Positions 10,673-62,440 of a stretch of 64,000 bases of DNA are shown here, piece by piece. Below the pieces are notes generated by a model. It was not told where the DNA came from, did no database searches, and worked only from the letters and a program-made list of their open reading frames with translations. Location of the stretch: the IMG/VR virus record IMGVR_UViG_3300027857_000017; one strand, 5' to 3'. The DNA is from a virus. Position 1 is the stretch's first letter. Each line of letters begins with the position of its first letter. Position numbers and translations under genes: made by a program.

Positions 10673-10678
10673 TCTTGC

Positions 10679-11742: not shown

Positions 11743-12048
11743 CCGTGGTATTATCCCGTGGTACATATATATTACGAATGATTGCGTTCGTGAGACGAGT
11801 GGAAAAACGAGAAAACAGCATGCTGTCATCTCGTTTTTATGTGTACCACGCCTTCTCGCCCTTAAATCTATCAGGGACCAAAGGGTGAGAGAGGAATCGA
11901 AAATTCACACAATGAATAGTTTGGGTACAGAAGCAGTGTACTAAAAAAGATGGCGAACGTCAATGATCTCTTGTTGTCCGTTCTACTACACAAGATGACA
12001 GAGAGTCTATGAGTCCATACACGGGTTCCGACCCCCAGGAGAGCAAAA

Positions 12049-13486: not shown

Positions 13487-14172
13487 CCTATCGAACCAAT
13501 TGAGGAAGCGAAGCAGCAACTCCATGAGACGAAAATGCCGCCCTGGTATCAGAAGTGCTTCATGGTCTACCTGTTCCGCTTTCTCTTGTTCCGCATAGAG
13601 CGCTACTGCTCGCTGGATAGCAATATCGCTGGCAACAGGTTCTTCAGGAAGTGGGTAAAAGGCCACGATAGAGCGATCACCTTCTTGCCGTGTTTTGAGG
13701 GAAAGCCTGGGAGGGATCAGCAAACGTGGTTCAGTGCTTTTTCTGGGTTCATCCTCAAAGTGATAGCAGGTTGACATAGCAATCCTCTTTCCACATATCG
13801 CATCAATAGTATTCATAGTGTGAGTCAATTTGGCAATGGAGGCATTGTACCTATGGGATGTGAACATGTCAATGGATGTATGAATATTCACTACATGAAT
13901 GAAGAGAGCCATATAAGGAGTAGGCTTATATGGCTCTCTTCGGGATGGACCGTAGAGGATGAGGGATAGGTATTATTCAGTGATAATCCGTTTAATACAC
14001 AGCCATCCTAGCATCCAAGATAGCGTATGTCAATACACCTATTCTTGTGTAAAGGACCATTGTACTGCTCTTTACCTTCTTGTATAATTCACAACGCGAA
14101 TATCTCTCTAGACAACTATGCTATGATAATGCTCACTAATCTTAATTTGATAGAAGGAGACTATTCCATTTT

Positions 14173-16093: not shown

Positions 16094-16177
16094 GGGTGAG
16101 TATCCAAGTGGACAAAGGAAACTGTCTGTAAAACAGCGGGCATCATGCCTTCAGAGGTTCGAATCCTCTCTCACCCA
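16094..16177 (+). tRNA. tRNA-Tyr (anticodon GUA), type II with long variable arm
   Basis: Acceptor GGGTGAG/CTCACCC, TA at positions 8-9, D-arm TCC-AAGTGGACAAA-GGA, anticodon loop CTGTAAA with U33-GUA-A37, variable hairpin GGCAT-C-ATGCC, T-arm AGAGG-TTCGAAT-CCTCT, discriminator A. D-arm and anticodon arm resemble bacterial tRNA-Tyr. Confidence 0.6.
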
Positions 16178-16185
16178 CCCTCTCT

Positions 16186-17805: not shown

Positions 17806-18036
17806 CGTCCCCCTTCCTCCACTCATAAAATGACACGGGCGAGAAAACGCTCATAGGTACCAAAAGCAGCGATAACCTACGAACTGCGGCCCGTGTCGAT
17901 AAGTCCTGTACTGAGCAAGTGAACTGGGGCGGGAATGTCAGCGATCCCAAAAGAAGCTAATAACCCGCCCATCTCGGCTCAGTACCATGATTGCGTGTCC
18001 TGGATAAAAAGCGATACTGGGTATCTTAAAGTCAAT

Positions 18037-23258: not shown

Positions 23259-23900
23259 TTGCAGGGTTGTGTCTTTTCGCTACCATCTACAATTATGGAC
23301 AATGGCGCAGATCAGTCATGGACAAAAAGGATGAGGAAAAGGGTGGAGAGTGACGGAGAGGGACTCAGGCGGTGCAAATCGTGCGAAGACAAGGGACTCA
23401 ACACCTGGCACCCACTTACCGACTTCCATCGAGACAAAAACGGAAAGGATGGACTCTCATTCTACTGCCGGTCTTGTTATGCTGAGCGAAAACGCAAGTA
23501 TCGGCGTCCCACCAAACCTGCCATCGTGCTCACGCCAGAACAACAGGAGCAGCAGAGGATGGCAAAGAGAGAGAAAGCCAAACAGGTATCGAGAGACTAC
23601 TACTATCAGCATAGAGAAGAGATCCGACAAAAGACCCGTGGGCGCAATGCAGCATACTACACCAACAACAAGGACCGGTTACGTGCCTACAAGCGGATGT
23701 ACACCAACCGACGCTACCACAATGACCCGGTGTACCGAGAACGGTTACTGACCTGGCAGAAGAATGCCCAGCAAGAACGTCGTATTTTGACACGTCTGAT
23801 TGCCTGGTGTTTGCGCGGGCCTCATCGTCTCCATTTGTTCCCGTGCCTGAATAAGGCTTTTGAGCATCTCTTTATCTATGGAAGAAAGAAGAAACAATGA
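23259..23900 (+). CDS. basic zinc-ribbon protein
   Basis: CKSCEDK...CRSCYAERKRKY; the real start is probably MDNGADQ (23295). Confidence 0.4.
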   Translation: MQGCVFSLPSTIMDNGADQSWTKRMRKRVESDGEGLRRCKSCEDKGLNTWHPLTDFHRDKNGKDGLSFYCRSCYAERKRKYRRPTKPAIVLTPEQQEQQRMAKREKAKQVSRDYYYQHREEIRQKTRGRNAAYYTNNKDRLRAYKRMYTNRRYHNDPVYRERLLTWQKNAQQERRILTRLIAWCLRGPHRLHLFPCLNKAFEHLFIYGRKKKQ

Positions 23901-36551: not shown

Positions 36552-38342
36552 ATGAGTCGGCAACATAGTATCGTCAAGCACCCATCAAATTACTTTTATG
36601 TCTCGCTTGAGGATGATTATCTCTTTCTGTATGACATCCTGGCAAAGCAGCTCGATCCTCTCAAGGTTGAACAAGGACAACCAAAGAGTGCTTCAAGTGA
36701 TTGCAAAGCCATGATTGCCGCTGTCCTAGAAGGATGGATGAATAGCAAACGTCCCAATGCGAAGAATGAGAGCGATCTCTATGTCCACTTCACCATTGAC
36801 GAATGGATACAACAATTACGCTATCGCTACAAACGCTCTGTCGTTATCCAGTGTCTTCATGAAATGGAAGAAGAGGGAACCTCTACTGATCCCCAAACTG
36901 GTAAGACGATAAAGGGAACCATCAAGAAGCGTCTCTTTGTTCAGAATACCTTTAGCTATCTTCTCAACCTTCCCGTTGTCCAGTCACTGCTTGACGATCT
37001 CCCTGAGCAGTCACCCTATGATATGAGACCCCGACCTGCACTGGGCAGACCGAAAATAAACGGTCTAAAAATGGACGGTATTTCTGAGGAAGAAAGCAGT
37101 CTAAAAAAAGACGGTATTAAAATAAACGGTTTAAAAAAAGACAGTATTCCCGAAAAGCAGTCTAAAAAAAGACCGATTAATGCCAAAAGCAGTCTAAAAA
37201 AAGACGCTCCGTTCTATACACAGAACTCGGTAATTACACAGAACTCAAATAACACAAAAGAGAGTGATTCCCGCGCATCATCGCAACCCACCATTTCGCA
37301 TCCGCCTACCGGCGATGCGACTCACTCACCTGTTGTTTCTCTGAGCAATGAGGACTTACTTGCAGAACTAGCACGACGAGGGATACTTCCTCAATCACCC
37401 TCATCCACATCGGGAGCAGAGTTATCCACTCGTAGCGTGAAGAATGTGGATAACCAAATAAGCAGAGATCTATCTACTGCCACGATAGTCGGTGAGGGTG
37501 ATGCACGTACCCTTGGTGGGGATGTGCAATCGCTTCTGCTCGAAGGATATCGACAGGTTGGCAAGAATGGCATTACCTCACTCACCTTTGAGGATCTCGT
37601 TACTGCACAGAATGCCGCTCTTTCCACGCACAACAACGACCTGAGTGACATTCACGCTATGAACGATGGAGCAACTACGCCATCACCCGCTCTCCCAGAA
37701 TCGCCTCTCAACACAAAAGAGGGACAGGACAATGAGACAGTTACACAAGGGAATGTGCAGGCAAGCGAGCAAGTTTCTTGTAGCCAGAGGGTGGCTATAC
37801 ACACAGAACTTCCAGATATGCCTCTACCAAATGAGAAAAACAAAAATAAGAAACCAAAGAATGTCGTGGACTTCCCTGCAGGACCTCCCCTCATGCCACC
37901 TCCAGATGCAAAGTGGGACGAGGAAACCGCAGTTCAAATCATGGAGTCCAAGAAGGGTCGGCACTATAGTGATACGACCCGTAGCCAGGAAAAGGGGGCG
38001 GCTAAGAAGGTGTTGAAGATGATCTATGATGATGGTCCGATCACGCGTGAGCAGTTTGAGGCGGCTACTGATGACATGATAGCGTGGCCCTTCTGGAAGG
38101 AGCATACGACTGTCAAGCCAATGATTAAAACCCTTCAGAAAGACGACAAAATTATTGCCATTCTGGATGACCTGAAGAAAAAACCAGTAAAGCGTCCAGG
38201 GAATGGATCATCTGCTGGGGTGGCTCAACAGAAAAATATCTATACCGAGATGTCTCTGGACAAAGATCTCATGGCGAAACGAATGGAACAGCGTCAAGCC
38301 ATTATTGACGCAAGAAAACAAGCTCAAGCAGTAGCGAGATAA
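36552..38342 (+). CDS. putative replication initiator / replisome organiser with internal iterons
   Basis: 596 aa, directly upstream of the DnaC-like and DnaB genes. The DNA inside the gene carries 5 iterons, analogous to lambda O/ori. Confidence 0.5.
   Translation: MSRQHSIVKHPSNYFYVSLEDDYLFLYDILAKQLDPLKVEQGQPKSASSDCKAMIAAVLEGWMNSKRPNAKNESDLYVHFTIDEWIQQLRYRYKRSVVIQCLHEMEEEGTSTDPQTGKTIKGTIKKRLFVQNTFSYLLNLPVVQSLLDDLPEQSPYDMRPRPALGRPKINGLKMDGISEEESSLKKDGIKINGLKKDSIPEKQSKKRPINAKSSLKKDAPFYTQNSVITQNSNNTKESDSRASSQPTISHPPTGDATHSPVVSLSNEDLLAELARRGILPQSPSSTSGAELSTRSVKNVDNQISRDLSTATIVGEGDARTLGGDVQSLLLEGYRQVGKNGITSLTFEDLVTAQNAALSTHNNDLSDIHAMNDGATTPSPALPESPLNTKEGQDNETVTQGNVQASEQVSCSQRVAIHTELPDMPLPNEKNKNKKPKNVVDFPAGPPLMPPPDAKWDEETAVQIMESKKGRHYSDTTRSQEKGAAKKVLKMIYDDGPITREQFEAATDDMIAWPFWKEHTTVKPMIKTLQKDDKIIAILDDLKKKPVKRPGNGSSAGVAQQKNIYTEMSLDKDLMAKRMEQRQAIIDARKQAQAVAR
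37060..37210 (+). repeat. iteron array (about 5 copies of GTCTAAAAAAAGAC-like units), candidate origin of replication
   Basis: Direct repeats of AGCAGTCTAAAAAAAGAC / AACGGTCTAAAAATGGAC / AACGGTTTAAAAAAAGAC within the initiator CDS. Confidence 0.5.
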
Positions 38343-38358
38343 AGAAAGGGAAAACACC

Positions 38359-38976
38359 ATGAACGACGAGGAAACCTTAGCACAGAGAAAAGCAGCAGAG
38401 CATCGCTGGTGGATGATGCAAAACATGAGACCGGCCTTTCAATGGCTTGGTGGTCACTGGACTTCTGAAGATCTACGAGGATCACGCTTCGAGAACTTTG
38501 ATGCAACCAGGCAGCAGACAGCGTACAATGCTGCACGGATGTTTGTTGAGATGCCACTGGGAACATTCATCCTCTATGGTCCATACGGAACAGGGAAAAC
38601 CCATTTGTTGGCCGCGATCTGTAATGCCCTGCTCGAAAGACATATTGCCTGCAGGTTCGCCACTGCTCCCAACCTGTTTGGTGCTATTGGCGGCTATGTC
38701 AACCACCGTGAGGATTACAGCACCCTGATCGCGCAAGCGATTGCAACTCCACTGCTGGTCATTGATGACGTAGACAAGGCGCGATGGTCAGAGTTCCGAG
38801 AGGAGATCTACTTTGACATTCTTGACGGACGAGCAAAACGGAAGTTGCCCACTGCTCTTTCGACGAACCGCCTTGAGGAGTTGGATACTTTTGTTGGCGG
38901 TGCCTGTCAATCCCGTCTGTCTATTGGGCAGATTGCCATTGAGATGAGCGGTAAGGACTATCGCCCAGAGTTGTAA
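38359..38976 (+). CDS. DnaC/IstB-like AAA+ helicase loader
   Basis: Walker A GPYGTGKTHL and Walker B LLVIDDVD. Confidence 0.75.
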   Translation: MNDEETLAQRKAAEHRWWMMQNMRPAFQWLGGHWTSEDLRGSRFENFDATRQQTAYNAARMFVEMPLGTFILYGPYGTGKTHLLAAICNALLERHIACRFATAPNLFGAIGGYVNHREDYSTLIAQAIATPLLVIDDVDKARWSEFREEIYFDILDGRAKRKLPTALSTNRLEELDTFVGGACQSRLSIGQIAIEMSGKDYRPEL

Positions 38977-38989
38977 AGGAGAAACACAC

Positions 38990-40405
38990 ATGGTTCAACA
39001 GGGGGAGCAGCGGAGACAGGCGCGAGCGGCAACAGAAAGGTTGCTTTCCAATATAGAGGCAGAGCAGGGTGTGCTGGCAGGGTTACTCAATAATCCAAAG
39101 GCATTGCGCAAGATTGCAGATCGCCTTCAACCAGACCACTTCTGGAATGAGGGGCATAGAATAGCCTATACGGCAATGCTTACCCTCCATCGAGAGGGCT
39201 ATCGCACGACGGTTGACAACCTTGTGGAGGAGCTTTCCAGGGTTGATGGATTGTCGCGGGTGTGCAATCCCCGCGACAATGAGACACAAGGGTGGTTCTA
39301 TCTGGTAGAACTGGAAAGCAGTCTGACGACACTTGATCCTCTCTACGAATATGTTGAGACCGTGATCAAAAAGTCCACGTTCCGCCAACTCTACTATGCC
39401 GCCGCTGAGATTGCTGCATTGGCCCAAAGGGAAGAAGGGGACGCCGTGAGCCAGTCCGTGAAGTTAATCAACGACATCGCGCTGGGGACAAGTCGGCACA
39501 GTGTCACTCCCTTTGGAGAGGCCATTGACGCCTATCTCGCGGATCTTCGCCAGCGAAAAGCCGATATGGACGAGGGGATTGCGCGTGGTATTCCAACCGG
39601 CTTTTCTGACCTGGATAAGATGATTGGTGGGTTACAGCCTGGTGATCTCATCGCGGTTGGTGCCTTGACCGGATACGGGAAAAGCTCATTTGCGCTCAAC
39701 ATCGCGCTCAACATCGCGCTTCATGCCAAACATGTGCTGTTCTTCAGTCTAGAAATGGGCGTCGGTGAAATTGTTCAGCGTGCCTTATCGGTCTATACCG
39801 CCCTGTGTCATACGGAGGTGAAGAACTCCAATCTGCGTGATGCCACTCTTTCAGAGGGCGAATTGCGCATGATCGAGCAATATGGGCAGGAACTGAAAGC
39901 GTGTTGTGATATCAAGTTGGATGATAGCGCCTTTACCATCGAGGAGATCCTGGCAAAGTCAAAAGAGGTCCACAGTAAAAAACCGCTCAATTTGATTGTC
40001 GTTGATTACGTGCAATTGATGGCAATGACGAACCGCAATAAAAATGGGAATCAGGCTCAGGATCTTGAGGAGATTAGTCAGGCATTAAAGCGTCTGACCC
40101 TAGAATTGCAGGTGACGGTGATGGCTCTGGTACAGCTCAACCGAAAAGTAGAGGAGAGGTCATCCCCTGAGCCGATGCTTGCAGATATCAATGCGTCAGG
40201 CGGCATTTCGCGGAGCGCTGATGCTGTCGTGTTTCTCTACCCTGATAAAGAGGCGATGGAGCAGCGAAATGCGGGTCAACCCTTTCCTATGTGGTTTAAG
40301 GTCGCCAAAGCACGTGATGGAGAAATGGGACAGGCACCACTACAATTCAGTCCTAGTACAGTGTCCTTTAGCGAGATAGGGACGCCCAATGGAGATGCTG
40401 AATAA
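38990..40405 (+). CDS. dnaB: replicative DNA helicase DnaB
   Basis: 471 aa; RecA-like core GALTGYGKSSFALNIA, IVVDYVQLM, and a DnaB-like N-terminal domain. Confidence 0.85.
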   Translation: MVQQGEQRRQARAATERLLSNIEAEQGVLAGLLNNPKALRKIADRLQPDHFWNEGHRIAYTAMLTLHREGYRTTVDNLVEELSRVDGLSRVCNPRDNETQGWFYLVELESSLTTLDPLYEYVETVIKKSTFRQLYYAAAEIAALAQREEGDAVSQSVKLINDIALGTSRHSVTPFGEAIDAYLADLRQRKADMDEGIARGIPTGFSDLDKMIGGLQPGDLIAVGALTGYGKSSFALNIALNIALHAKHVLFFSLEMGVGEIVQRALSVYTALCHTEVKNSNLRDATLSEGELRMIEQYGQELKACCDIKLDDSAFTIEEILAKSKEVHSKKPLNLIVVDYVQLMAMTNRNKNGNQAQDLEEISQALKRLTLELQVTVMALVQLNRKVEERSSPEPMLADINASGGISRSADAVVFLYPDKEAMEQRNAGQPFPMWFKVAKARDGEMGQAPLQFSPSTVSFSEIGTPNGDAE

Positions 40406-41519: not shown

Positions 41520-42106
41520 ATAACGAGATAAGGAGGATCTCTCATATGACAACAGAGTGGTATACCCAACCCCAATACATCGAAGCGGCACGGCGTGTGA
41601 TGGGACATATCGACTTGGACCCGGCCTCCTGCGCGGCAGCAAACCTGATTGTGCGTGCATCCAGGTACTATACCAAAGAGGACAATGGACTGACGCAGTC
41701 GTGGCAATCTGAAAGTGTATGGCTCAATCCACCGTACGGCAAGATCAACGGGCGGAGACTCACAGGGTTCTTCATTTCCAAACTGGTAGAGGAGTACCAG
41801 GCAGGTCATGTCGAGCAGGCAATCCTGCTGACCATGACCGATACGTCAACGAAGTGGTTTCAACTGATTAGAGACTACCCAATATGCTTTGTGAACCACA
41901 AGGTTCACTTTTACACCACTCGACCACTGAAGTCCAATCCAACTGCCTCGCATAAGTATGGTGTGCTTTTCGTGTATCTTGGACCATATGAGGATCGCTT
42001 TATTCAGGAGTTCAGTAGGTTTGGCGATATCTGGCGAAGGATCAGTGCAGACCAGAGAGCGTGTCAACCGTGTTTGTGGGTAGTGGGAAGTGAGGCAGTA
42101 TCATGA
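41516..42106 (+). CDS. phage-type DNA N6-adenine methyltransferase (Dam-like)
   Basis: IDLDPAS ... NPPYG motifs of the phage N-6-adenine methyltransferase family. Confidence 0.7.
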   Translation: MNNEIRRISHMTTEWYTQPQYIEAARRVMGHIDLDPASCAAANLIVRASRYYTKEDNGLTQSWQSESVWLNPPYGKINGRRLTGFFISKLVEEYQAGHVEQAILLTMTDTSTKWFQLIRDYPICFVNHKVHFYTTRPLKSNPTASHKYGVLFVYLGPYEDRFIQEFSRFGDIWRRISADQRACQPCLWVVGSEAVS

Positions 42107-42630
42107 CTACAGCAACCAGACACGTCATCCCAGTCTCAGGGAAAGATAGTCTCGCAACTGCTATCATCCAGATGAGAAGAGAACCTGACTTGCCTTACGA
42201 ATTGCTCTATAATCCAACAGGAATGGAATTGCCTGAGGTCGAGGCGTGGCTTGCTCTTGTAGAGCAGTACCTGGGTAAGCCGATTGTGCGTGTTGGCGAT
42301 GACCTTGGTGAGATTATCCGAGAACAACAGATCTTGCCTGCACATAAGCAGCGTTTTTGCACCAGGCTCGCCAAGATCATCCCGATGGAGGAATGGTTAG
42401 GAACAGACCCTGCAAGAGTCTATTATGGCATTCGTGCTGACGAGCAGAGGGTGGGCTATCAATCTATGAGCGGACACAACATCACGCCAGTCTACCCGCT
42501 CAAAGAAGAAGGGTATACGCTTCCAATGGTGTGGCAATTGGTGATGGACCTGGACCTCTTGCCACCACAATTCTTCTGGCAGTCCCTGTATGAGATGGTC
42601 GTGAAAAGGTTGGGCATAGCCCGTGAGTAA
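42103..42630 (+). CDS. PAPS reductase-like (ATP-PPase fold) protein, N-terminal segment
   Basis: PVSGKDS PP-loop motif and PAPS_reduct-like core; terminates at a TAA located in a hairpin loop (see findings). Confidence 0.6.
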   Translation: MTTATRHVIPVSGKDSLATAIIQMRREPDLPYELLYNPTGMELPEVEAWLALVEQYLGKPIVRVGDDLGEIIREQQILPAHKQRFCTRLAKIIPMEEWLGTDPARVYYGIRADEQRVGYQSMSGHNITPVYPLKEEGYTLPMVWQLVMDLDLLPPQFFWQSLYEMVVKRLGIARE

Positions 42631-42646
42631 CTCACGGGCTATGCCC
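42612..42646. repeat. perfect 35-bp palindrome (16-bp arms) with the in-frame TAA as its 3-nt centre
   Basis: GGGCATAGCCCGTGAG-TAA-CTCACGGGCTATGCCC. Confidence 0.8.
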
Positions 42647-46011: not shown

Positions 46012-46518
46012 TTAGTAGTTGTAGATCCCTGCATGTTCGCAGTTTTCTAGAGACCATCTCACCCACCATTCTAGCCAGACTCGTCTGGCTAGAATGGCAT
46101 CATAGCCAACATCTGGCTCCTCTCTTTCCCAAGAGAACTTCTCAAAGCCAGGAGTAGCATCGGGATGAGATGATCGCCAAGTATCGAGTGCGGTATGAAT
46201 GATGACCCAGTGTTCCCGTGTGAGTTGAGCGTGTCCAGGGTGCTCACGCATCAACCCATCGAAGTCATCGAAGAAGAGCCCATACAATCCCGTGTCCCTA
46301 CAAAATTCACCCCATGCGCTATAGGCGGGATGCCGACCATTGCTGTTCCCGGTCATCTCATCATTCGGGAATGTCGGTGCATCTGGTCGCCTTATCTCTT
46401 CAATGATTGGCTCAAAGTACTGGAGAGATCCATTCATGATGCGGGTATAGTCGGTGGTGTACTCATTGTCCTCTACGGGGCGCATCTTCGTGTTGCCAAT
46501 GTATATGCTATAACTCAC
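46012..46518 (-). CDS. hypothetical protein
   Basis: 168-aa ORF coupled to 46521-46961. Confidence 0.4.
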   Translation of the reverse strand: MSYSIYIGNTKMRPVEDNEYTTDYTRIMNGSLQYFEPIIEEIRRPDAPTFPNDEMTGNSNGRHPAYSAWGEFCRDTGLYGLFFDDFDGLMREHPGHAQLTREHWVIIHTALDTWRSSHPDATPGFEKFSWEREEPDVGYDAILARRVWLEWWVRWSLENCEHAGIYNY

Positions 46519-52267: not shown

Positions 52268-52300
52268 CGGCCAAATAAAAACACCGCACCTCTCTGGTGC
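52268..52300. terminator. bidirectional Rho-independent terminator
   Basis: AACACCGCACC-tctct-GGTGCGGTGTT followed by TTTTGG on the plus strand and TTTTTATTT on the minus strand. Confidence 0.55.
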
Positions 52301-53601
52301 GGTGTTTTGGTTCAGTCTTTAATATCCTTGGTCATAGAGGATAGAGTGCAGGGCCTCGTTGACGATCTGATTGAGGCGGTAACTAGGATGATCCTTGAGG
52401 CAGATTTGCAATCGTTCCATGACACCGAGTTGGATACATGCCTCTAGTTTGGTGTTGAATGGCTCAGTGCGATGTCGGCGTTTCAACTCAGTTTCCTCTG
52501 CGATATATGCGGGATCATCAGGGTCAAAGTTCAGATCTTCTTCGCTCATTCGCCTCTCCTCGCTGTATAGCGGAACGTCCATTCCTGTTTCGTTTCACTG
52601 TACTTATAAGAAATTTTGCCACCGATACCGCTTTTATCGAGAGCTTCCTGAAACGCATCAGACTCATGAATGCGTTCGCCTAGCATTTCACCATCCACAA
52701 TGATCACCCACCGTCCAGGATTCTTTGCCTTCCAGAATTTCAGATCTTTGTTGGCAGATGCAAAAAGTTCTCGCATCTTTGCCTGCATCGCTGCCTCTCC
52801 AGTCAGTTTCATCATCGTTGTCCTTCCTCTGTGCTGAAGAGCATTCCCAGATGGAAAAGCGCGAGCTTCTCTTCTGGCGTTTGCGGCGGATAAGGTTGAG
52901 CATCGCTCACCAGCCAGAGGCTCGACGCTGTACCAATGGTTCCATAGTGAGCACATACCTTCTCAGTACTCAGCATCTCAAGAAGTTCGCTGTCTGTCGA
53001 GAATGAGTGGTTCCCTGCAATGTACTGGCTTGTCTGAAGATAAGCGACGACATCAGCATCTGACCATTGCCGTACCTCAATGATTCTCCCTAGATGTGCT
53101 TCAACCACCTGTTGTACCAACTCCTCTGGTATCTCATCTTTGGGGAGCCATGCACTTCCATCTGGTTCAGTACCATCGTTGTCATATGCTGATCTATAGG
53201 GACCTAGCATTTTGAATGCTGAGGAAACGCTGTCAGGGCGCAATTCCAATACGTTCATAGTACCCTCTCTCAGTTACGTCCTCTCAGTTACGTCGCTCCC
53301 ATTCTTCTCCGTCATTCAGCCACATTTCAATCCCTTCCTCCAGTCCATCTACATCGGCCCAGGTTGCGTCTGCGCCCCAGGAAATGCCCATCCTCTTCCA
53401 CTCTGGATCATAGAGTCCCTCGGCCCGCTCTGCAAACTCTTTTCCTGCGCTGTCCAAAATGCGAATTATCAGTCCCACTGTCTTTTCAGAGCATCCAGCC
53501 AAATCTTTTCGGAGGGAGGTGGACCCTATTATTTCTTCTAGGTCCACCTCCTCGTAGGTGAAAGAGCGCTTTTCGTCCTCTTTCTTTTGCTTGATTTCTT
53601 C

Positions 53602-53623
53602 GGGTATTCGGCTTTTAATGTGT
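53602..53623. repeat. solo copy of the ISL3-type terminal inverted repeat
   Basis: GGTATTCGGCTTTTAATGTGT versus IRL GGCTATTCGGCTTTTAATGTGT, 100 bp left of the IS. Confidence 0.5.
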
Positions 53624-53969
53624 TTACCCACATTTTGACCATTACTCTTTTTCATTGTTTGCGTGACGGGGATGAGCCGGGATAACAACACTACAATCTT
53701 GGGCTATTCGGCTTTTAATGTGTAATCACCCACTCGCTATCAATTCCTACATTTTTCTAAAATTCGGCATTTGTTGTTGACAAGTAGGAAGTTATCGAGT
53801 ATACTACACAATAGAAGCCGAATTTTAGAAAAATGTAGAAGGGCGGTTGTGTCGGGATTTCGCCCCCTGTATAACCCGATCAGAGATGCTTACTGTACGC
53901 AGTAACGACGGCTGATAACCTTGAGGGAGCCACCTCAACAAAGAGTATAGCAGAAAGGAAAAATGAGAA

Positions 53970-54473
53970 ATGAGAGGCAAAGCGCGGCTTTTCTCACCCC
54001 TGCAAGGGTTTACCTACTGGTTTCCAGAACGTTCAAGGATCGCACTCTCATCAGTCCAGAGCGATCTAGGGAAAACAATTATCTTGCGGAAACGGGCTAC
54101 CTGCCGCATGTGTGGCAAACGGATGCAACCAGGAGAACAGGCCATTATAGACGCGAGTGATTTCGATGATATTGGACATGTAGACGGATTCATACACGCT
54201 GCAAAGTGCATCCCTCTCGTTGAATTGGTTATGGGGAACCAAACCGAGCAAGGATTTGAAGAGCGTGAGCGCATACGCTCGGATGGGTACTACCATGAAG
54301 AAGCAATGAAGTCTTACTCATTAGAGTACGCCCAACAGGATGAAGCAAGGTACTTTCTTGACTCCTATTGGAGCGGGATCTTTCAAGTCTGCTATGTAGA
54401 GGTTGATGGCATACGTCATCCTGAGCCGATCTACTCAGAGTGGTATAAGAAAACGGAAGTAGCAAGGACATAG
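53970..54473 (+). CDS. passenger ORF inside the IS (zinc-ribbon hypothetical protein)
   Basis: 167-aa ORF with CRMCGK; transcribed from the internal promoter. Confidence 0.35.
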   Translation: MRGKARLFSPLQGFTYWFPERSRIALSSVQSDLGKTIILRKRATCRMCGKRMQPGEQAIIDASDFDDIGHVDGFIHAAKCIPLVELVMGNQTEQGFEERERIRSDGYYHEEAMKSYSLEYAQQDEARYFLDSYWSGIFQVCYVEVDGIRHPEPIYSEWYKKTEVART

Positions 54474-54726
54474 ACATGAGCACTATCAATTGGACAAAAA
54501 ACGCCGATGGGTCGCTCACGGCTTCAATCAAAGAAGGAATAACAGCGACAATCCGCCAACGGCTCATTGATGCTAAATGGAAAGGCTATATACTCATCGA
54601 TGGGCAAGAGTTACCCTTTCGAGAGCAGGCGCAATACACCGGGATGCAAACAGCAAAGGAGTGGATCAAACGTCAGGTTCTTACCAATCAGATTTAATGC
54701 GTCAACCAGTAGGATAATGGAATATA

Positions 54727-56055
54727 ATGAGTGTGTTTACACAAGAAACCCTAACAGACAGGCAGCGTAACCTGTTGAACCTTCTCAATCTCCAAGGATG
54801 GAGCATCGCGAAGATTGACGAAGATGAGGATGACTATGCTATTACAGCAAGTCCATCCTCTATCCCCCACTCGTGCCCTATCTGCCAGCACACTCACCTC
54901 TTCAAGCATGGCTCTGATGCCCAGGGCATCCACGATACCCCGATCCACGGCAAACGCGTTGTCATCAAGGTAGACAGGCAACGCTATCGCTGTACGAACT
55001 GTGGCAAAGCCTTCTTCCAATCGTTGCCAGATGTGGATGAGAAGCGTTTCTGTACGAAGCGCCTCATTGCCTACATTCAGCGTCGATCCATGAGCAGAAC
55101 CTTCCTCTCGCTGGCAGAGGAAGTAGGTCTACATGAGCGCACGGTGAGGCGTATCTTCCATGATTATGTAGAGGCGTTAGAACAATCCACTCACTTTGCC
55201 ACGCCCCGCGTCATGGGTCTGGACGAGCTGCATGTCATCCACCAGGCGCGAGGCATCATTACCAACATTGAGGCAGGCACGATTGTCGAATTTCTCCATG
55301 ATCGTAAGAAGCAAACCATCATGCGCTACCTCTCGCACCTCGAAAAGAAGGATCAGGTTGAAATAGCCTGTATCGACATGTGGCAACCCTACAGAGAGGC
55401 CATCAGGGAAGTCTTGCCCCAGGCCAGGATCGTGGTTGACAAATTTCACGCTGTTAAGCTCGCCAATGAGGCCCTTGAACAAGTGCGTAAAGAGGTGAGA
55501 GCAGGTCTATCCGACAAACAGAGGCGCGCCCTTATGCATGATCGGTTTTTGCTCCTCAAGCGGCGAAGCGATTTGAAGGACAAAGAGAAGCTGATCTTAG
55601 AAACCTGGACGGAGAACTTCCCAGCACTTGGCAAGGCATATGCCATGAAGGAGAGCTTCTTTGAGATTTGGAATGCGAAGACGGTGGATGAGGCAAATGA
55701 CCTCTACTATGCGTGGATCTGCCAGATTACGCCGGAGATCGCCGACGCCTTTGTCCCGATCACGCTGACGATGGAGGAATGGGGCGATGAGATCTTCGCC
55801 TACTTCGATCACAGATATACCAATGCCTACACTGAAAGTCTAAATGGGTTGGCGAGGGTTGCGGCCAGACTTGGAAGAGGGTACTCCTTTGATGTGCTGA
55901 GAGCACGATTGCTCTACGGGATTGGGCAGCACCCGAACCGAAAGAAGAAAGAGAAGAGTGTGGAATCACTCCTAGCAGGCGTTAATATTTCCACACTCGT
56001 CGAATCCGCTCAGGCAGAGCTTGAAACAGAGGAACCCACATTAAAAGCCGAATAG
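54727..56055 (+). CDS. ISL3-family transposase
   Basis: N-terminal zinc-finger CPICQ..CTNCGK (zf-ISL3) and DDE core; 442 aa. Confidence 0.8.
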   Translation: MSVFTQETLTDRQRNLLNLLNLQGWSIAKIDEDEDDYAITASPSSIPHSCPICQHTHLFKHGSDAQGIHDTPIHGKRVVIKVDRQRYRCTNCGKAFFQSLPDVDEKRFCTKRLIAYIQRRSMSRTFLSLAEEVGLHERTVRRIFHDYVEALEQSTHFATPRVMGLDELHVIHQARGIITNIEAGTIVEFLHDRKKQTIMRYLSHLEKKDQVEIACIDMWQPYREAIREVLPQARIVVDKFHAVKLANEALEQVRKEVRAGLSDKQRRALMHDRFLLLKRRSDLKDKEKLILETWTENFPALGKAYAMKESFFEIWNAKTVDEANDLYYAWICQITPEIADAFVPITLTMEEWGDEIFAYFDHRYTNAYTESLNGLARVAARLGRGYSFDVLRARLLYGIGQHPNRKKKEKSVESLLAGVNISTLVESAQAELETEEPTLKAE

Positions 56056-56691
56056 CCCATATCTGGCCCGGTATTCTTTGGGGTCGTCGGTCAAGTCTTC
56101 GTTTTGCTCAAGAGCGAGATCAACGAGGCTATTTGCATGGGTCTCCAACTCCTTGCCAGTGAGAGCATCACCGAGGTAAATCATACGTGTATCTTCCCAG
56201 GCATCGTTTGCAGCTTTTTGGTCGAGGTTGGCACGTGCCGACATGCTGGTTTCTAGCGCGTAGGTGTAGGACATTTCTTCTCCCCTTTCTTCAATTTGTT
56301 GACGATATCTCTCGCCAACTTGTCTGATAAACTCAGTAACGCCAATTTCCTCTGTACGTTGTTCCAGCGAGACTTTTAACGCGATCCAGCGGTCATTGCG
56401 AAGCAATTCTGGCGCAAACACTTCGGCATGGTTTGCCAGTGCCTGCCAGTTGCTGACCATGAAACGAAGTTGATCTGCCAGTGGCGACGGTCCAATATGT
56501 TCTTGAATGCCAGCGAGCGCATACTCTTTGGCTTCTTTTATACAAGCCTTTTCAGATGCTTCCTCGCTCCTCCCTCTGAGGATCTTTTCGATAGCTGGGA
56601 GGACATCAGCAGGGAGATACAGGCTAATAGTTTTGCCTGTAATCTCCTTAGCAGCATAGGTGTTCTTCTCCGGTGCCCCTTTTTCTGCCAT
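56041..56691 (-). CDS. hypothetical protein whose 3' end is altered by the IS right end
   Basis: 216-aa ORF; its last codons lie inside IRR. Confidence 0.35.
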   Translation of the reverse strand: MAEKGAPEKNTYAAKEITGKTISLYLPADVLPAIEKILRGRSEEASEKACIKEAKEYALAGIQEHIGPSPLADQLRFMVSNWQALANHAEVFAPELLRNDRWIALKVSLEQRTEEIGVTEFIRQVGERYRQQIEERGEEMSYTYALETSMSARANLDQKAANDAWEDTRMIYLGDALTGKELETHANSLVDLALEQNEDLTDDPKEYRARYGLFGF

Positions 56692-57119: not shown

Positions 57120-58169
57120 CTATAGCTCACCCATCAACCGCTGTACCACCCTCACATCTTCTCCTGCCTCCTCGCTCATTGGTGGTTCTACCACACTGCG
57201 GTCAAGGTAGTGGAGAACACGGTTATACTGCAGGTGAGAAGGGTCTTCCTTGCTGGTAGACTCGATCATGAAGACGGTTGTCCCATCAGGACAATGAGGT
57301 GGAACAATCGGTCGTCCTCCATCGGCGACTGAGAGGATGATGCGATCCTTGCCACACGTGACCTGGAATGCATGTCTGACTTGCTGCTCACGTGAGCCAT
57401 CACTTCGGACATATTCCAGGTTGGGATCACCACCAATGCGATAGCGCCCAGTGTTTGGGTGTCTATGCCATCCCGTAGGTTCAGGTTGTTCAACCGGATT
57501 CCACTCCGTGAAAGCCTGGATAGCTGCATTCAGTGATGGGAAGTCCCAGGTGTCAGCATAGACGCCAATTGTGTGCATCGGTGGGAGCATCCCAATGCCG
57601 AGTCTGGCATGTCCTCCAATGAGTGGCTCGATGGCAAGGAGTCGCTCATCAGGAAGATGTTTCTTGAGCATGAATCCTTGCTCATCTACTGATGGGCTTG
57701 TCGTTGGACCTTTCCCGCAACCAGCCTCACATCCGTCGTGACACGGGAGTCCCTGAGCCATGCGGAGAACCATTGGCTCATCTGGAATTGGGAGACCGTA
57801 TATGTCGCAGATTCTCTTCAAGATCGGAGCGCCATACTGTGCGTAGTTCGTACTCTCCTCCGCAAATTGTTGTGTTTCCTCATCACCCAGGAGCCAGAGC
57901 CACGCTCCCATCTTCTCAACACTTCTCATCGCGCTGATGCCACGATGGTCCATGACCTTCTCCCAGGAAAATTCCATGTACTCTCGCATGGTCGCTATGA
58001 CGGACTCACGGGTGAGAGGTTTCTGCTGCCAGTCTGAGAGATCAGCATCCTCTTTGAGAAGTGGCCTTACCTTTTCAGGAGAGAGAAACGGCAGGATGGC
58101 TTCTCCAACAAACCCAAGCATGTCATCGCTTTGCTGATAGTAGGCAAGTATTTCGTCTTCTGTCTTCAT
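57120..58169 (-). CDS. hypothetical protein (349 aa)
   Basis: Cys cluster CHDGCEAGCGKG; no family recognised. Confidence 0.4.
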   Translation of the reverse strand: MKTEDEILAYYQQSDDMLGFVGEAILPFLSPEKVRPLLKEDADLSDWQQKPLTRESVIATMREYMEFSWEKVMDHRGISAMRSVEKMGAWLWLLGDEETQQFAEESTNYAQYGAPILKRICDIYGLPIPDEPMVLRMAQGLPCHDGCEAGCGKGPTTSPSVDEQGFMLKKHLPDERLLAIEPLIGGHARLGIGMLPPMHTIGVYADTWDFPSLNAAIQAFTEWNPVEQPEPTGWHRHPNTGRYRIGGDPNLEYVRSDGSREQQVRHAFQVTCGKDRIILSVADGGRPIVPPHCPDGTTVFMIESTSKEDPSHLQYNRVLHYLDRSVVEPPMSEEAGEDVRVVQRLMGEL

Positions 58170-58172
58170 GCT

Positions 58173-59087
58173 TCACTTCCCTGTGGTGAACGGCGCGAGT
58201 ACTGGGTTACTTTGTCCATTGGTGGAGAGATAGTTTGGCAAATGACCATCCCATTTTTGCGCGATGAGGTACTGAATGTACTCAGGTGACTTCGCCAACT
58301 GTGCATTGATGATCGCAATACTCTGTGCATCTCCCTGAGCCTTTGCTACTGCTGCATCTGCTTCATATTGCGCTTGCTGCTTGAGGTAGGCGCTCTTCTG
58401 TGCATCATTTCGAGCATTGAGGACTGCCTGGATCGTGGCATCAGGTTTTCTTTCATTGAGGAAGACCTGTGTGACGAGAATGCCGTTTGGCGTCAGGTCT
58501 CGCTGGAGTGCATTCATAACATCAGCCTTGAACTGGTCCGTCTTAGCTGGTCCTGTCCCATCTCCTAGTAAGTCCTGCCATCCGTAGCGCGTGCAGGCAT
58601 CTAAGACATCGCTTCTTACGGCACCATAGACAAGCGTGGTATTGATATCGTTGTTCAGACTACTCACCAGCGGCACTCCCGGTTTCTTGAGATAGAGTAT
58701 TTCGGGATGTTCGCTATTGACCTGCCAATTGACTGTTAACCCAATGTTGAGGATACCTCCACCTGACATCTGGCAGGCAATGGTGGAGTCGCCTTGTAGT
58801 TCGCCTTCCTCGCTCTTGGATGAAAGGACGAGCTGCTGCTGGGCGATGGGATACTCCACAATTTGCTCACCTGAGAAGGGTGGAATGAAGGCATATTGTC
58901 CCGTAGCGAGTGTGTGGATGACGGGTTTCCCTGCACTTGCACCTGCAGCGAAGTCAATGAGGATACCTGCGTTTCCTGGGTCTATGCGCTTATAGCTGGT
59001 GGCGATGGTGATAACGACGATGATGGCAACGATGCCAATAATGGCGCTAATCGTACAGCCTTTGGGATGCTCTTCGATAAAATCCAT
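58173..59087 (-). CDS. SPFH/band-7 (stomatin/HflC-like) domain protein
   Basis: N-terminal transmembrane helix, then an SPFH core and a coiled-coil AQKSAYLKQQAQYEADAAVAKAQGDAQ. Confidence 0.7.
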   Translation of the reverse strand: MDFIEEHPKGCTISAIIGIVAIIVVITIATSYKRIDPGNAGILIDFAAGASAGKPVIHTLATGQYAFIPPFSGEQIVEYPIAQQQLVLSSKSEEGELQGDSTIACQMSGGGILNIGLTVNWQVNSEHPEILYLKKPGVPLVSSLNNDINTTLVYGAVRSDVLDACTRYGWQDLLGDGTGPAKTDQFKADVMNALQRDLTPNGILVTQVFLNERKPDATIQAVLNARNDAQKSAYLKQQAQYEADAAVAKAQGDAQSIAIINAQLAKSPEYIQYLIAQKWDGHLPNYLSTNGQSNPVLAPFTTGK

Positions 59088-59088
59088 A

Positions 59089-59271
59089 CTAATTATGTTT
59101 CTCCTCTTCTTCCATTTGTCCTTGATGATATTCTTGGATGATGTCTTTTTGTGTCTGCGTAAAGTGTTTCTTGATTTGTCCGACGAGGTAAGCGAGTGGT
59201 CTCAGTGAAAAGTAGATGACAATACCCACGATGGTGACAGAGAGTAGGGCTTGTCCCAACTCATACCACAT
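59089..59271 (-). CDS. small membrane protein partnered with the SPFH protein
   Basis: 60 aa with one transmembrane helix, immediately upstream and coupled. Confidence 0.4.
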   Translation of the reverse strand: MWYELGQALLSVTIVGIVIYFSLRPLAYLVGQIKKHFTQTQKDIIQEYHQGQMEEEEKHN

Positions 59272-60104
59272 AGCATCTTCCTCCCTTCTACTTCTCTAAA
59301 CGTAGCGTTTTATTCCTCATCCAATCTCTTCTTGAGAATATGCAACTCTCCTGCTTGGTACAGCCTATCGCAAAAATCAGCACGCTCTACCGGACTCCAC
59401 GGTGTCTCTTCCCCCTGGATCTCAATACGCGTCTTTGCCCACTCGCTGAATTGCTGATCTGTTGCCTCACCTGCGTGAATGGAGACCCAATGACCTTCCT
59501 CATCTTGTGCTCTGATATAGACAAGATCCAGTTCTGTGGGTGTGATGGGATCGGGCATATCGGGCGGGAAGATGAGTAGTTCCATCGTAGTGCTGCAATG
59601 GTGTGGAAGCACCTCTACCTGCACGGCTTGCGCCTTGAGTTGTTTGAGTTGCTCTATCCAATCGAGATCTGCCTGAGAGATATATCCACGTACTTGGCAG
59701 GTTGAGCAGATGAGGACAGCACGAGAGTTTTTTTGTCGGGTCACATGCATTATGTTTATACCTTCCCCTCTTGGATGCAGAGTGCCATCAGCTCTCCTGC
59801 GTGTCTCTCGCAAAAATAGACATACCCGTTTGGTAATGGTGATGATGTTGGCAGCTTCAGGTACGCTGGTTCTGTGCAGTCCTTCTCTTCAGTTTGCTTA
59901 CCATTTTCATCTGTGGCGGTTTGCATGAGTCCGCATCGCTGTTCATCGCTCATTTCATTCCTGCTTTCCCATCTGTCTGCTGCTCTGATGCTTTGCGTAT
60001 TTCCCTGATACGCTGGAGGTTAGAGTGATGACGTTTACTTTCTAAGTAGAGGATGGCTCCTACTACAAAACACAGGAGACCCGCGAGTGTCCAATTTAAT
60101 ATGA

Positions 60105-60452
60105 TCACCTCTTGTTTCCCTCTCGTGGTCTGCGCATGGTGAATCGCTCTTCTCTGTAGACTCGTTTTCGTTTGGCGATACAGATGAAGCAGTACTGTGC
60201 CCCATTGTTCCGCCTGGTCTCATTGCCACAATCAAGACAGATGCGAGGCGTTTCCGGTGGCAATGGGTGCCTTCTTCGCGCTCGTGGGTGTGGTGCATCT
60301 GCTTCGGCATGTTCTTCGATGAGCTTTTTGGGTGGACGAGAACGACCCTCCCGCCTTTGCGTTTCCCGACACTCAAAACAATAGTGTGCGTGGGCGTTAC
60401 GCCTGGTTGGTAGTCCACAGGTAATGCATATCCCTGGCTCTCGCTCTGTCAT
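60105..60452 (-). CDS. double zinc-ribbon basic protein
   Basis: CITCG...CFECR and CLDCG...CFIC. Confidence 0.35.
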   Translation of the reverse strand: MTEREPGICITCGLPTRRNAHAHYCFECRETQRREGRSRPPKKLIEEHAEADAPHPRARRRHPLPPETPRICLDCGNETRRNNGAQYCFICIAKRKRVYREERFTMRRPREGNKR

Positions 60453-60955
60453 CGTGCCGATCCCATCTGCGCATCCTGTAGTTGTTGGCGTAGAGTCTGT
60501 ACCTGTTCTTCCAACTGTTTTTGATACGCTTCAGCAAGGACGCTGACTCTCCCATTTTCCGCTAGAACACGCACCAGGCCATCTGGAGTCTGAATGTCCC
60601 AGATGCGAAACTGGGCGCTGATTTCCCGCAATGATTGCAACCCTATCGTCAGATGATGAGTCTCTAGAAAGGTGAAAACCGATGAGATGACATCCTGGAT
60701 GAGCTGAACCTCATTCTCTTGTGCCTGTGTGTGTATCAGTTGGGAAGTCGGTTCGAGAACCGACTTCCCAACTGATACACGTCCCTGTGCAAATTCATCA
60801 ATCTGCTCTTGTGAAATGCCAAGAAAGAGACCTGCGTTATCTCTCACGCATTTGATACGTCCAAGTGTCGTGTACTGCCGGATGGTAGCTACTGCTAGAT
60901 TGAATTGTGCTGCTACCTCTTCCATTGTGTATAATCGGTTACTTGTTGTTGTCAT
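60449..60955 (-). CDS. HTH_17-like N-terminal DNA-binding protein containing a 50-bp palindrome
   Basis: YTMEEVAAQFNLAVATIRQYTTLGRI HTH; the perfect palindrome at 60731-60780 encodes VSVGKSVLEPTSQLIH. Confidence 0.45.
   Translation of the reverse strand: MTTTSNRLYTMEEVAAQFNLAVATIRQYTTLGRIKCVRDNAGLFLGISQEQIDEFAQGRVSVGKSVLEPTSQLIHTQAQENEVQLIQDVISSVFTFLETHHLTIGLQSLREISAQFRIWDIQTPDGLVRVLAENGRVSVLAEAYQKQLEEQVQTLRQQLQDAQMGSAR
60731..60780. repeat. perfect 24-bp-arm inverted repeat (2-bp spacer) inside a CDS
   Basis: GTGTATCAGTTGGGAAGTCGGTTC-ga-GAACCGACTTCCCAACTGATACAC. Confidence 0.8.
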
Positions 60956-61049
60956 ATATTCTCTCCTTCCCTGGATGCGGTTGTATTGGTTGATGCCGTA
61001 GCGTCAATATGTTTTCTGTGCATGCTTTTGATGGGAGAGCATCACTTGC

Positions 61050-62219
61050 TTATTGTCCCGTTGCTTTCAATTGCGCAGCCGCCTCTGCCATGAGCGTGCC
61101 TATGTCTGCCATGATGGACGAGAGTGGACGTGGAGACGGGAGTGGTTCTGTCTGACCTCCTGATGACGGAGTAGGTTGAGGTGGAGGGGGACTAAACCAC
61201 GGATTGCCTCCCAATGACCAGACGGAAATGTTGGAGAGTCCCTGACTCAAAATCGCTTGCATTCTCATATCCATTGTGGTTGAGTCAGCATAAGAGTAAG
61301 ATATCCCGCTTTGTGACCACATCATCTCTCCAGATGCCGGGTCCCGTACGGCAGTAGAGAAGCCTGGAAGACTTGATGCTTGCCTACTAGGAAACTTCTT
61401 GACGTGATAGGTCCCTGTGGCTCCCGAATAGGCATAAGAAGGTATGCCTATCACGATCCTGTTGACATCGGTGATTTTACTTTTCGTCCACTGGCAGCAG
61501 GCAGTGAGTGTCAAAAGTGGCGCAATAGGTGTGCCCGCTCCATTATCCGATTGCAGATCATAACACATGGCGGTGATGTAATCTGCTGGCAGTGGTTCCA
61601 GATCTTCATACTTGAAGGGATAATAGCCTTGATATTTGGCGTTAAAAATCACCGGCCCGTCAATCATTAACTGGTAGTTCTGAGCATGCAAGGCATTGCC
61701 AAGTTGTTTGATAAATGCCAGGTAACCTTGATACTGCTGCTCGCTCCACTTACTAAACCCCTCGAAATCCAACTCAATCCCGGTGAATTGTGCTGTCTTC
61801 AGAAACTCTACTGTGGTGGTGATAAAGTCTTGCGTCAGGAGAGGAGAAGATGTGAGCGCAACCATTCCTGCCGTTTGTCCTGAGATGGTGACGAATTGCC
61901 TCTCGCTAGCTGCTTTGATAGATGCCACATTCTCAGGGCTGTAGCCAAGGCATCTTGCGCTTGTCACGGTGTCCTGCACAAGAGTGCCAGTATCTTGTAA
62001 GGTGTAGTACTGAGGTTTCAGTACTGTAATCTGTTTGGTGATATATTCAGTTTGGACATCACACGATAAATCTGGATAGAGCCAGGCCATCGTTGTCACT
62101 TCCATCTTCTTCCCCTCTGGTATAACTGTCTTCTTGGGAATTGGCGCAGGCGTCGTTCCGCAAGAGATGAGAATGAACGTGATGAGAATACTTATGAGAA
62201 TAAGCACACGCTTGTTCAT
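61050..62219 (-). CDS. lipoprotein with a glycoside hydrolase family 18 (chitinase-like) domain
   Basis: Signal peptide plus lipobox LISCG; GH18 catalytic motif GIELDFEGF (DxDxE); Pro-rich C-terminus. Confidence 0.6.
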   Translation of the reverse strand: MNKRVLILISILITFILISCGTTPAPIPKKTVIPEGKKMEVTTMAWLYPDLSCDVQTEYITKQITVLKPQYYTLQDTGTLVQDTVTSARCLGYSPENVASIKAASERQFVTISGQTAGMVALTSSPLLTQDFITTTVEFLKTAQFTGIELDFEGFSKWSEQQYQGYLAFIKQLGNALHAQNYQLMIDGPVIFNAKYQGYYPFKYEDLEPLPADYITAMCYDLQSDNGAGTPIAPLLTLTACCQWTKSKITDVNRIVIGIPSYAYSGATGTYHVKKFPSRQASSLPGFSTAVRDPASGEMMWSQSGISYSYADSTTMDMRMQAILSQGLSNISVWSLGGNPWFSPPPPQPTPSSGGQTEPLPSPRPLSSIMADIGTLMAEAAAQLKATGQ

Positions 62220-62440
62220 CAGCGGTGGTGAGGTGTCCCACTCCCACTGAGCAGTTTCTCTACGGTCTCTTGACGCACACGATACGACTCACGCTTGTTG
62301 AGATGAGGCAACCGCACTGCTTCCAGGAGACCGTTCTTGATCCATCTTCTCACGGTTGTGTCATCCACGCGAAGAATTGCGGCCACCTCGTGGACGGTGA
62401 GCAGTTTCGTCTCTTTCTCTTCCAGTGTTTTCAATGTCAT
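62219..62440 (-). CDS. excisionase-family HTH_17 DNA-binding protein
   Basis: LTVHEVAAILRVDDTTVRRWIKNGLLEAVRL. Confidence 0.55.
   Translation of the reverse strand: MTLKTLEEKETKLLTVHEVAAILRVDDTTVRRWIKNGLLEAVRLPHLNKRESYRVRQETVEKLLSGSGTPHHR

Follow-up and report, generated by a model that had tools for sequence, protein, structure and literature searches.

Template-switch mutations of the quasipalindrome type (Ripley model) are among the closest described counterparts of the feature considered here, and have been documented in E. coli as quasipalindrome-associated mutations, or QPMs (PMC7202029). Inversion of the loop and the one-step creation of a perfect stem are recognized as signatures of template switching, and loops of 4 nt are enriched (PMC8794818). 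Template-switch correction has also been proposed to maintain the perfect inverted repeats of bacteria, and imperfect inverted repeats are preferentially corrected to perfect ones in Proteobacteria (PMC5941160). Palindromic DNA embedded in genes is further known from the Rickettsia palindromic elements (RPEs), which measure ~150 bp, form families with tens of copies and lie in frame in open reading frames (ORFs; PMC10969869). The palindrome analyzed here, located at about 60.7 kb of a 64-kb stretch of DNA (hereafter the window), belongs to a kind of feature that is already known, of which it is an unusually long, in-frame example. Like template-switch mutations, it consists of a perfect reverse-complement copy adjacent to its presumed source, with a minimal spacer and an effective loop of 4 nt; it occupies a single locus with no dispersed family, and it has a sister palindrome in the same window that displays both a multi-base change to perfect pairing and an inverted spacer. 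Unlike the usual bacterial cases, its 24-nt arms are long, it lies in frame within a gene, and it is bordered by 10-bp repeats that fall outside the model. A de novo copy of 24 nt is at the long end of the range for bacterial template-switch events. The locus resembles the RPEs in being palindromic DNA that is held in frame at a position compatible with the fold and function of the protein, and differs from them in its size (50 bp) and in being single-copy in the accessible data.

The palindrome spans positions 60731-60780. Its left arm, GTGTATCAGTTGGGAAGTCGGTTC (60731-60754), is the downstream arm on the coding (minus) strand and encodes E68-H75 (EPTSQLIH), and its right arm, GAACCGACTTCCCAACTGATACAC (60757-60780), is the upstream arm on that strand and encodes (R59)V60-V66 (VSVGKSV). 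Both inspection of the sequence and a repeat finder gave 24 complementary positions out of 24. Between the arms lies an asymmetric 2-nt spacer (60755-60756) that reads GA on the plus strand and TC on the coding strand. Since GA is not self-complementary, the preliminary description of a 50-bp perfect palindrome is accurate for the 24-bp arms but not for the center: the arrangement is 24+2+24, not a 50-bp dyad. Altogether the palindrome runs from the second base of codon 59 to the end of codon 75, (R)VSVGKSVLEPTSQLIH. The 20 codons made up by the palindrome and one flanking repeat contain no stop, and the reading frame is kept.

Chance does not account for such a structure, as had been argued at the outset. 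None of 100 shuffled versions of the window contained the 24-nt arm, even when 3 mismatches were allowed, and simple arithmetic predicts ~3e-9 perfect 24-nt repeats in 64 kb. Perfect hairpin repeats with arms of at least 12 nt number about zero per shuffled window vs. 13 in the real one, the 60.7-kb palindrome being the longest of these. Contigs from ENA (MEGAHIT) and Logan carry its DNA with 100% identity over 12.2 kb and 2.6 kb; the three assemblies in agreement come from different assemblers, possibly working on one read set. The palindrome is thus confirmed as real, in frame within 60449-60955 and non-random. Folded as RNA, it forms a 23-bp stem with a 4-nt loop at -40.7 kcal/mol (z = -7.4 vs. 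shuffles), the effective loop being 4 nt once the innermost pair opens, and the operon mRNA carries this stem however the palindrome arose. Scored on synonymous choices only and ranked among real-gene windows, the 16 palindrome codons fall at the 0.3rd percentile; taken separately, the arms fall at the 3.5th (upstream) and the 0.2nd (downstream).

The palindrome is single-copy in all accessible data. The window holds no second copy of the arm with up to 3 mismatches, and blastn-short searches of the window and of the related loci that were fetched returned no weaker relatives. Exact-match scans for the arm across viral, genome and metagenome collections likewise yielded none of the further copies for which the preliminary description had proposed a search, although the metagenome scan also missed the window's own contig and its silence is therefore weak evidence. 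Arm k-mers of 8-11 nt occur elsewhere in the window at chance frequency, with none enriched. An operator, iteron or parS-type site was discarded, as neither the arm motif nor a half-site recurs in the replicon. When the 80-bp unit was compared by blastn with annotated plasmids and phages, only noise at E>1 was returned. A search for the arm tips alone, in the pattern GTGTATCAGTTG-N16-46-CAACTGATACAC, gave one match (L010), the interior of which is non-palindromic and lies in AT-rich, ORF-free DNA; a family of miniature inverted-repeat elements (MITEs) conserved at its tips was accordingly rejected and the match judged to be chance, with ~0.1 matches expected for an assumed collection size.

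The gene that carries the palindrome in frame (60449-60955, minus strand, 507 nt) codes for a protein of 168 aa. It is considered a real gene because a strong Shine-Dalgarno sequence, GGAAGGAGAG, precedes its ATG, because the ORF that follows it in a minus-strand operon starts in overlap with its stop, and because nine distant homologs share its two-domain architecture. These homologs, the best of which is 48% identical, were found by an exhaustive HMMER search of 1.84 billion cluster representatives; a word-indexed search matched only the protein itself, tblastn against plasmids and phages gave no match, and alignment-based locus retrieval gained nothing for a family this divergent. The protein comprises a Xis/MerR-like winged helix-turn-helix (HTH) domain (residues about 8-59, nt 60779-60934), a disordered linker (residues 56-80) and a conserved alpha/beta C-terminal domain (residues about 81-168). 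All the longer homologs are built in the same manner, with an N-terminal winged HTH, a non-conserved linker of variable length and the conserved alpha/beta domain. Its earlier designation as HTH_17-like is weakly supported: Foldseek relates the HTH to the winged helices of Xis, BldC and MerR (E about 0.03, TM about 0.75 on the target), and the Pfam matches to MerR and HTH_17 remain under the gathering cut-offs.

The AlphaFold (AF2) model of the protein has a mean pLDDT of 80.6, and its sole internal segment of low confidence (pLDDT <50) corresponds to residues 61-76. The residues encoded by the palindrome (59-75) fall wholly in the disordered, non-conserved linker between the two domains. This linker measures 25 aa with the palindrome and would be reduced to 5 aa by the removal of 60 bp, whereas it ranges from 21 to 50 aa in the seven homologs counted. 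As to an insertion of about 16 codons, for which the preliminary description had proposed an alignment of homologs, the lengths oppose it, and the similarity of the palindrome-encoded peptide to the homolog linkers is not significant and speaks neither for nor against it. The start of the upstream arm continues an AQGRV motif that reads AQTRV in the closest homolog (P0002). The linker DNA of four homolog genes is devoid of a long palindrome, which indicates that the palindrome is not a conserved feature of the family.

The surrounding replicon encodes a DnaB helicase, a DnaC/IstB-like loader and, upstream of these, a 596-aa protein, as well as ParA, one Xer-like tyrosine recombinase (2053-3096, the only one found), HNH and homing-type nucleases, a DNA methyltransferase, Ro60 and an ISL3 insertion sequence (53700-56059). 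A weak endonuclease-VII-like ORF occurs at 23259-23900. No capsid, portal or terminase gene was recognized among the ORFs scanned. The 596-aa protein has a conserved N-terminal portion of ~225 aa, with a folded core of ~130 residues modeled as a winged helix, followed by long disorder. Its gene adjoins those of the loader and helicase near the minimum of the cumulative GC skew (about 32-36 kb), for which reason the origin of replication is probably located there and not at 60.7 kb. Relatives of the replicon genes are found on IMG/VR viral contigs and on a similar element that carries ParAB, Ro60 and Mom, and metagenome-assembled genomes (MAGs) of Ktedonobacteraceae supplied both the nearest ISL3 transposase and one homolog of the 596-aa protein. 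The description that fits the window best is that of a phage-plasmid-like mobile replicon, the host of which is probably a member of the Ktedonobacteria.

Most of the 13 perfect hairpins surveyed sit at the boundaries of genes or in small ORFs of doubtful status, and only one beside that at 60731-60780 lies inside a solid gene. This second palindrome (46066-46097) is made up of 15-nt arms that again enclose a 2-nt spacer. For the minus-strand gene in which it lies (46012-46518), 58 homologs with identities of up to 83% were found, and the segment that the palindrome encodes, AILARRVWLEW, is the best-conserved motif of that family (consensus ILARLIWLDWW). Because it encodes this motif, the palindrome cannot be an insertion and must have arisen in place. 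In the same register, the DNAs of four homologs form 5, 7, 8 and 12 of the 15 Watson-Crick pairs, against 15 of 15 in the window. A synonymous-codon null model gives ~7-8 pairs, which makes the perfect pairing of the window improbable by chance (P<0.001), as is the pairing at 12 positions in the lineage of P0016 (P = 0.003-0.005). As spacer, the window has GA where two homologs have TC and another two TG. Since the reverse complement of TC is exactly GA, the change from one to the other amounts to an inversion, by which codon CTC (Leu) becomes CGA (Arg). Leucine occupies this position in 41 of the 43 family members with a recognizable motif, and arginine is present only here and in the relative with 83% identity. 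The codon score of this segment lies at the 1.7th percentile of real-gene windows.

Inversion of the spacer and a multi-base change to perfect pairing are the very signatures of template switching in the literature, and their presence at 46066-46097 indicates that this process has acted on in-frame palindromes in the replicon lineage. The inverted spacer is well documented and is the most useful by-product of the analysis. Template switching did not figure among the candidates of the preliminary description; it is the existence of the second in-frame palindrome in the same window that points to it.

On this basis we favor, with a confidence that falls a little short of even, the explanation that the 60.7-kb palindrome is the product of a replication template switch that has been tolerated in a permissive linker and has no dedicated function. 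We infer that the process that shaped 46066-46097 also made this palindrome, and the identity of the source arm in the same way. During replication, the nascent strand would have switched template after passing the upstream arm and about 2 nt, copied ~24 nt of linker-coding sequence as its reverse complement by folding back, and then returned to the normal template, plausibly via the (AC)n microhomology at the junction of arm and flank. A single event of this kind would exchange part of the old linker for a perfect inverted copy, and the product could survive since the linker is disordered and tolerant of sequence, the frame was kept and no stop was created. The downstream arm is most likely the templated copy and the upstream arm its source, because the downstream arm has the least coding-like codon usage. 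In both in-frame palindromes, the symmetry of the DNA overrides the choice of codons, a pattern that fits a template switch and is also compatible with a foreign origin of both arms at 60.7 kb. Replacement in place, as opposed to net insertion, is argued from the length of the linker, which is in the range of the homologs as it stands and far below it once 60 bp are subtracted. As collateral effects, the operon mRNA would acquire the 23-bp hairpin, which may slow ribosomes or attract nucleases specific for double-stranded RNA, and the DNA would gain a potential to form cruciforms or hairpins along with atypical codons.

Several observations weigh against a template switch. The 10-bp direct repeats that abut the palindrome are not predicted by a single switch and have to be attributed to coincidence; the presumed source arm is itself atypical in its codons; a DNA site under selection would show perfect symmetry just as well; and, with the closest homolog being only 48% identical and its linker unalignable, the ancestral linker cannot be reconstructed.

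The flanking repeats carry the most serious of the competing explanations. On the left, GTGCCTGTGT (60721-60730) encodes T76, Q77, A78 and the first base of Q79 on the coding strand, and on the right, GTCCCTGTGC (60781-60790) encodes A56, Q57, G58 and the first base of R59. Set 60 bp apart, the two stretches agree in 8 of their 10 bases, and they abut the palindrome exactly. A match of this quality at period 60 is found at only 0.066% of window positions; if the duplication may measure anything from 4 to 12 bp, the empirical p is about 0.003. None of the other perfect palindromes of the window has comparable flanks. Together, the palindrome and one repeat (50+10) add up to 60 bp, i.e., exactly 20 codons. 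The locus could therefore be the footprint of a transposon or a minimal MITE, in which an element with identical terminal inverted repeats of at least 24 bp inserted into the linker and made a target-site duplication of 9-10 bp, the sum of 60 bp restoring the frame; such an element could always have consisted of two ends, or could have lost its interior by replication slippage as in the "nearly precise excision" of Tn10. We regard this origin as unlikely, but as deserving more weight than any other alternative to a template switch. The remnants left by nearly precise excision of Tn10 are reportedly ~50 bp long and palindromic, with a 9-bp duplication at their flanks. The palindrome resembles these Tn10/Tn5 remnants in consisting of ~50 bp with two inverted ends abutted and a direct duplication of 9-10 bp outside, but no parent transposon or insertion sequence with such ends is known or was found, and the duplication is imperfect. 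Remnants of Tn10 and Tn5 obtained in the laboratory do not normally restore the function of a gene; unlike them, the 60.7-kb palindrome is in frame.

Beyond the flanks and the total in frame, a transposon remnant would account for the non-native codon usage of both arms, and the replicon has been exposed to insertion sequences, since its ISL3 element has perfect ends of 23 bp and extra end-like copies nearby. Terminal inverted repeats are present as well, if trivially, given that the whole element would be two 24-nt inverted repeats. The ends of the ISL3 element (GGGCTATTCGGCTTTTAATGTG) are nevertheless unrelated to the arms, and no second copy or parent insertion sequence came to light in the window, the related loci or three public collections. 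At 50 bp, the palindrome is also smaller than the in-frame intragenic elements covered by a MITE review, such as the RPEs. The duplication has 2 mismatches whereas the 48 arm positions have none, a disparity with a probability of ~0.08 under neutral decay. Excision of the 60 bp would leave an ancestral linker of 5 aa, vs. at least 21 aa in all seven homologs counted, and the residues at the start of the upstream arm continue the AQGRV motif, as compared with AQTRV in the closest homolog. Finally, an origin by transposition leaves the second in-frame palindrome unexplained. The in-frame MITE of the preliminary description thus retains the flanks that resemble a target-site duplication and the total of 60 bp, and loses ground on its single copy, its small size and the residual linker. 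Should the transposon explanation be true, the host gene would have been rescued by a remnant that is in frame and unusually small.

Regardless of how it arose, the hairpin could be kept by selection for a role at the RNA level, a prospect that we consider improbable. It might serve as an RNase III-type processing site, as a barrier to 3'-exonucleases that differentially stabilizes the upstream operon mRNA, or as a terminator/attenuator without U-tract that uncouples the HTH domain and the upstream genes from the downstream genes. The stem is very stable, codon preference has been given up for symmetry, and the fact that most of the 13 perfect hairpins lie at gene boundaries without T-tracts gives the impression that this replicon uses hairpins as punctuation. 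The palindrome at 46066-46097 is, moreover, partly conserved, with its 12 pairs of 15, in a homolog that is only 60% identical. The resemblance to U-tract-less ("I-shaped") terminators and RNase III sites extends to a long, stable stem without T-tract, as in the gene-boundary hairpins of the window, but the 60.7-kb stem lies 175 nt into a 507-nt gene and not at a boundary, a mid-gene position that would be costly for translation. A functional RNA permits G-U pairs and bulges, and an all-Watson-Crick stem of 23 bp exceeds in both length and perfection what a functional RNA stem requires; pairing at 24 of 24 positions speaks instead for a process at the DNA level or a recent origin, and template-switch correction alone would be able to keep the repeats perfect (PMC5941160). 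There is no T-run on either strand at the palindrome, the site is not reported by a terminator scan, and no Rfam covariance model matches it at the gathering score, the sole Rfam match in the window being a tRNA at 16094-16177. Four homolog genes lack any hairpin in the linker. A frameshift signal was also rejected, since no slippery heptamer of the form X XXY YYZ precedes the stem in the mRNA. If the notion is widened to a selected, structure-specific element of the coding linker, either an operon-splitting RNase III/exonuclease-barrier hairpin or a cruciform or hairpin DNA recognized by an enzyme of the replicon, we judge it to be marginally more doubtful still; if true, mobile elements associated with Ktedonobacteria would possess a class of hairpin signals embedded in coding sequence, represented here by the two in-frame palindromes with their 2-nt spacers.

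A unique DNA site for a dedicated enzyme, be it a protelomerase site, a site of recombination or dimer resolution, or a hairpin origin or priming signal, is very improbable. Protelomerase targets are palindromes of roughly 40-56 bp, and Xer/att-type sites have short imperfect arms around a core of 6-8 bp. The palindrome is near the size of the former and does not share the geometry of the latter. It resembles the protelomerase sites of N15 (telRL) and relatives in being a unique palindrome of tens of bp on a ParA-bearing replicon, as plasmid prophages are (a relative has both ParA and ParB), yet it differs from them in its asymmetric center, its intragenic location and the lack of a detectable protelomerase gene. 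Neither a protelomerase, an HUH/Rep protein, a relaxase nor a nearby recombinase emerged from searches of the larger ORFs with Pfam, PHROGs, NCBIfam and PDB; the protelomerase search covered the ORFs scanned in the window, about 3.9 kb of the 67.9-kb contig lying outside it. The 596-aa ORF was rejected as a hidden protelomerase or recombinase, as homolog alignment, AF2 and Foldseek describe it as a small winged helix plus disorder. A tyrosine recombinase is encoded by the replicon, but far from the palindrome. With no recombinase detected near the site among the ORFs scanned and neither the arm nor its sub-motifs repeated, the recombination or resolution site put forward in the preliminary description is not borne out. 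Its hairpin origin fares no better in the face of a GC-skew minimum and of initiator-like, DnaC-like and DnaB genes at about 32-40 kb, and an origin of replication at 60.7 kb was rejected on the same grounds.

That the palindrome is an inverted chimera produced by assembly or library preparation, which the possible reliance of the three assemblies on one read set would allow, is scarcely credible given the identical sequence from three assemblers with unique flanks on both sides, the size of a feature that is shorter than one read, and a frame that stays intact over the 20 codons of palindrome and flank repeat.

If the template switch is the true origin, the window would offer two clean natural cases in which replication template switching recast coding sequence on a mobile replicon. 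On the one hand, a 24-bp stem would have been built inside a disordered linker. On the other hand, a quasi-palindrome would have been perfected within a conserved motif, its spacer being flipped and a change from leucine to arginine forced upon the protein. Such cases would show that symmetry at the level of DNA can override both codon usage and the conservation of amino acids, and why scars of this type survive in disordered linkers. They also carry a warning for annotation, since a gene may contain a long perfect palindrome that is neither a site nor a mobile element.

A second perfect palindrome (46066–46097; 15-nt arms, 2-nt spacer) lies in frame within the minus-strand ORF 46012–46518, where it codes for the motif that is most strongly conserved across a protein family of 58 members. 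Homologs form only 5 to 12 of the 15 pairs at the same register. The spacer of the palindrome is inverted, from TC to GA, which changes Leu to Arg at a residue that is Leu in 41 of 43 family members.

Outside the window, the 12-nt tips of the main palindrome recur identically (GTGTATCAGTTG...CAACTGATACAC) at positions 7442–7502 of the metagenome contig Ga0209629_10010727 (L010), around a non-palindromic interior of 37 nt and in AT-rich DNA without long ORFs. We judge this match to be due to chance; the segment is possibly a small, unrelated element with terminal inverted repeats.

The gene that hosts the main palindrome belongs to a minus-strand operon (57120–62440), together with genes for a small HTH_17 protein, a lipoprotein-like GH18 chitinase-family protein, a Zn-ribbon protein and a Band_7/SPFH protein. 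Since a Band_7 gene also adjoins the host-gene homolog in L007, the locus carrying that homolog, a conserved module is suggested. An ISL3 element (53700–56059) is bounded by perfect 23-bp terminal repeats (TGGGCTATTCGGCTTTTAATGTG) and contains an extra ORF of 167 aa. Close to its left end lie further end-like copies: a direct one outside the element (53597–53623) and inverted pairs inside it (53747–53838). They may represent either a remnant, nested or MITE-like, or binding sites in a sub-terminal position.

The replication module (36552–40405) encodes a 596-aa protein followed by a DnaC/IstB-like ATPase (38359–38976) and DnaB (38990–40405). The 596-aa protein, for which no family match was found, has a winged-helix domain within its conserved N-terminal region and, besides, long disordered regions. 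Because the module begins just after both the cumulative GC-skew minimum (~32–36 kb) and a switch in gene strand, the origin probably lies nearby.

ARAGORN predicts an 86-nt tRNA-Tyr(GTA) gene on the plus strand (16094–16179; Rfam tRNA match at 16094–16177, 52.8 bits), 7 nt from the minus-strand Ro60/TROVE gene (16186–17826). In the related element L003, a tRNA-Gln gene (11942–12012) lies ~330 nt from the Ro60 gene (9958–11616). Both may be genuine tRNAs; alternatively, they may represent the tRNA-like module of a Y RNA of the YrlA type, a partner of Ro60.

Perfect hairpin repeats with arms of at least 12 nt number 13 in 64 kb, against ~0 expected (e.g., 3969–4016, 13901–13941, 42612–42646 and 52278–52308). 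The majority are located at gene boundaries and the majority lack T-tracts, and they are possibly terminators without a U-tract or mRNA punctuation. The hairpin at 13901–13941 covers the start codon of ORF 13454–13912, and that at 42612–42646 is centered on the stop codon of ORF 42103–42630. Elsewhere, a 213-aa ORF on the plus strand (23259–23900) weakly matches the PHROG endonuclease (E 1.6e-6) and endonuclease VII (1.1e-4) families; if these matches are real, this replicon, in which perfect palindromes abound, would encode an enzyme that cuts junctions or cruciforms.
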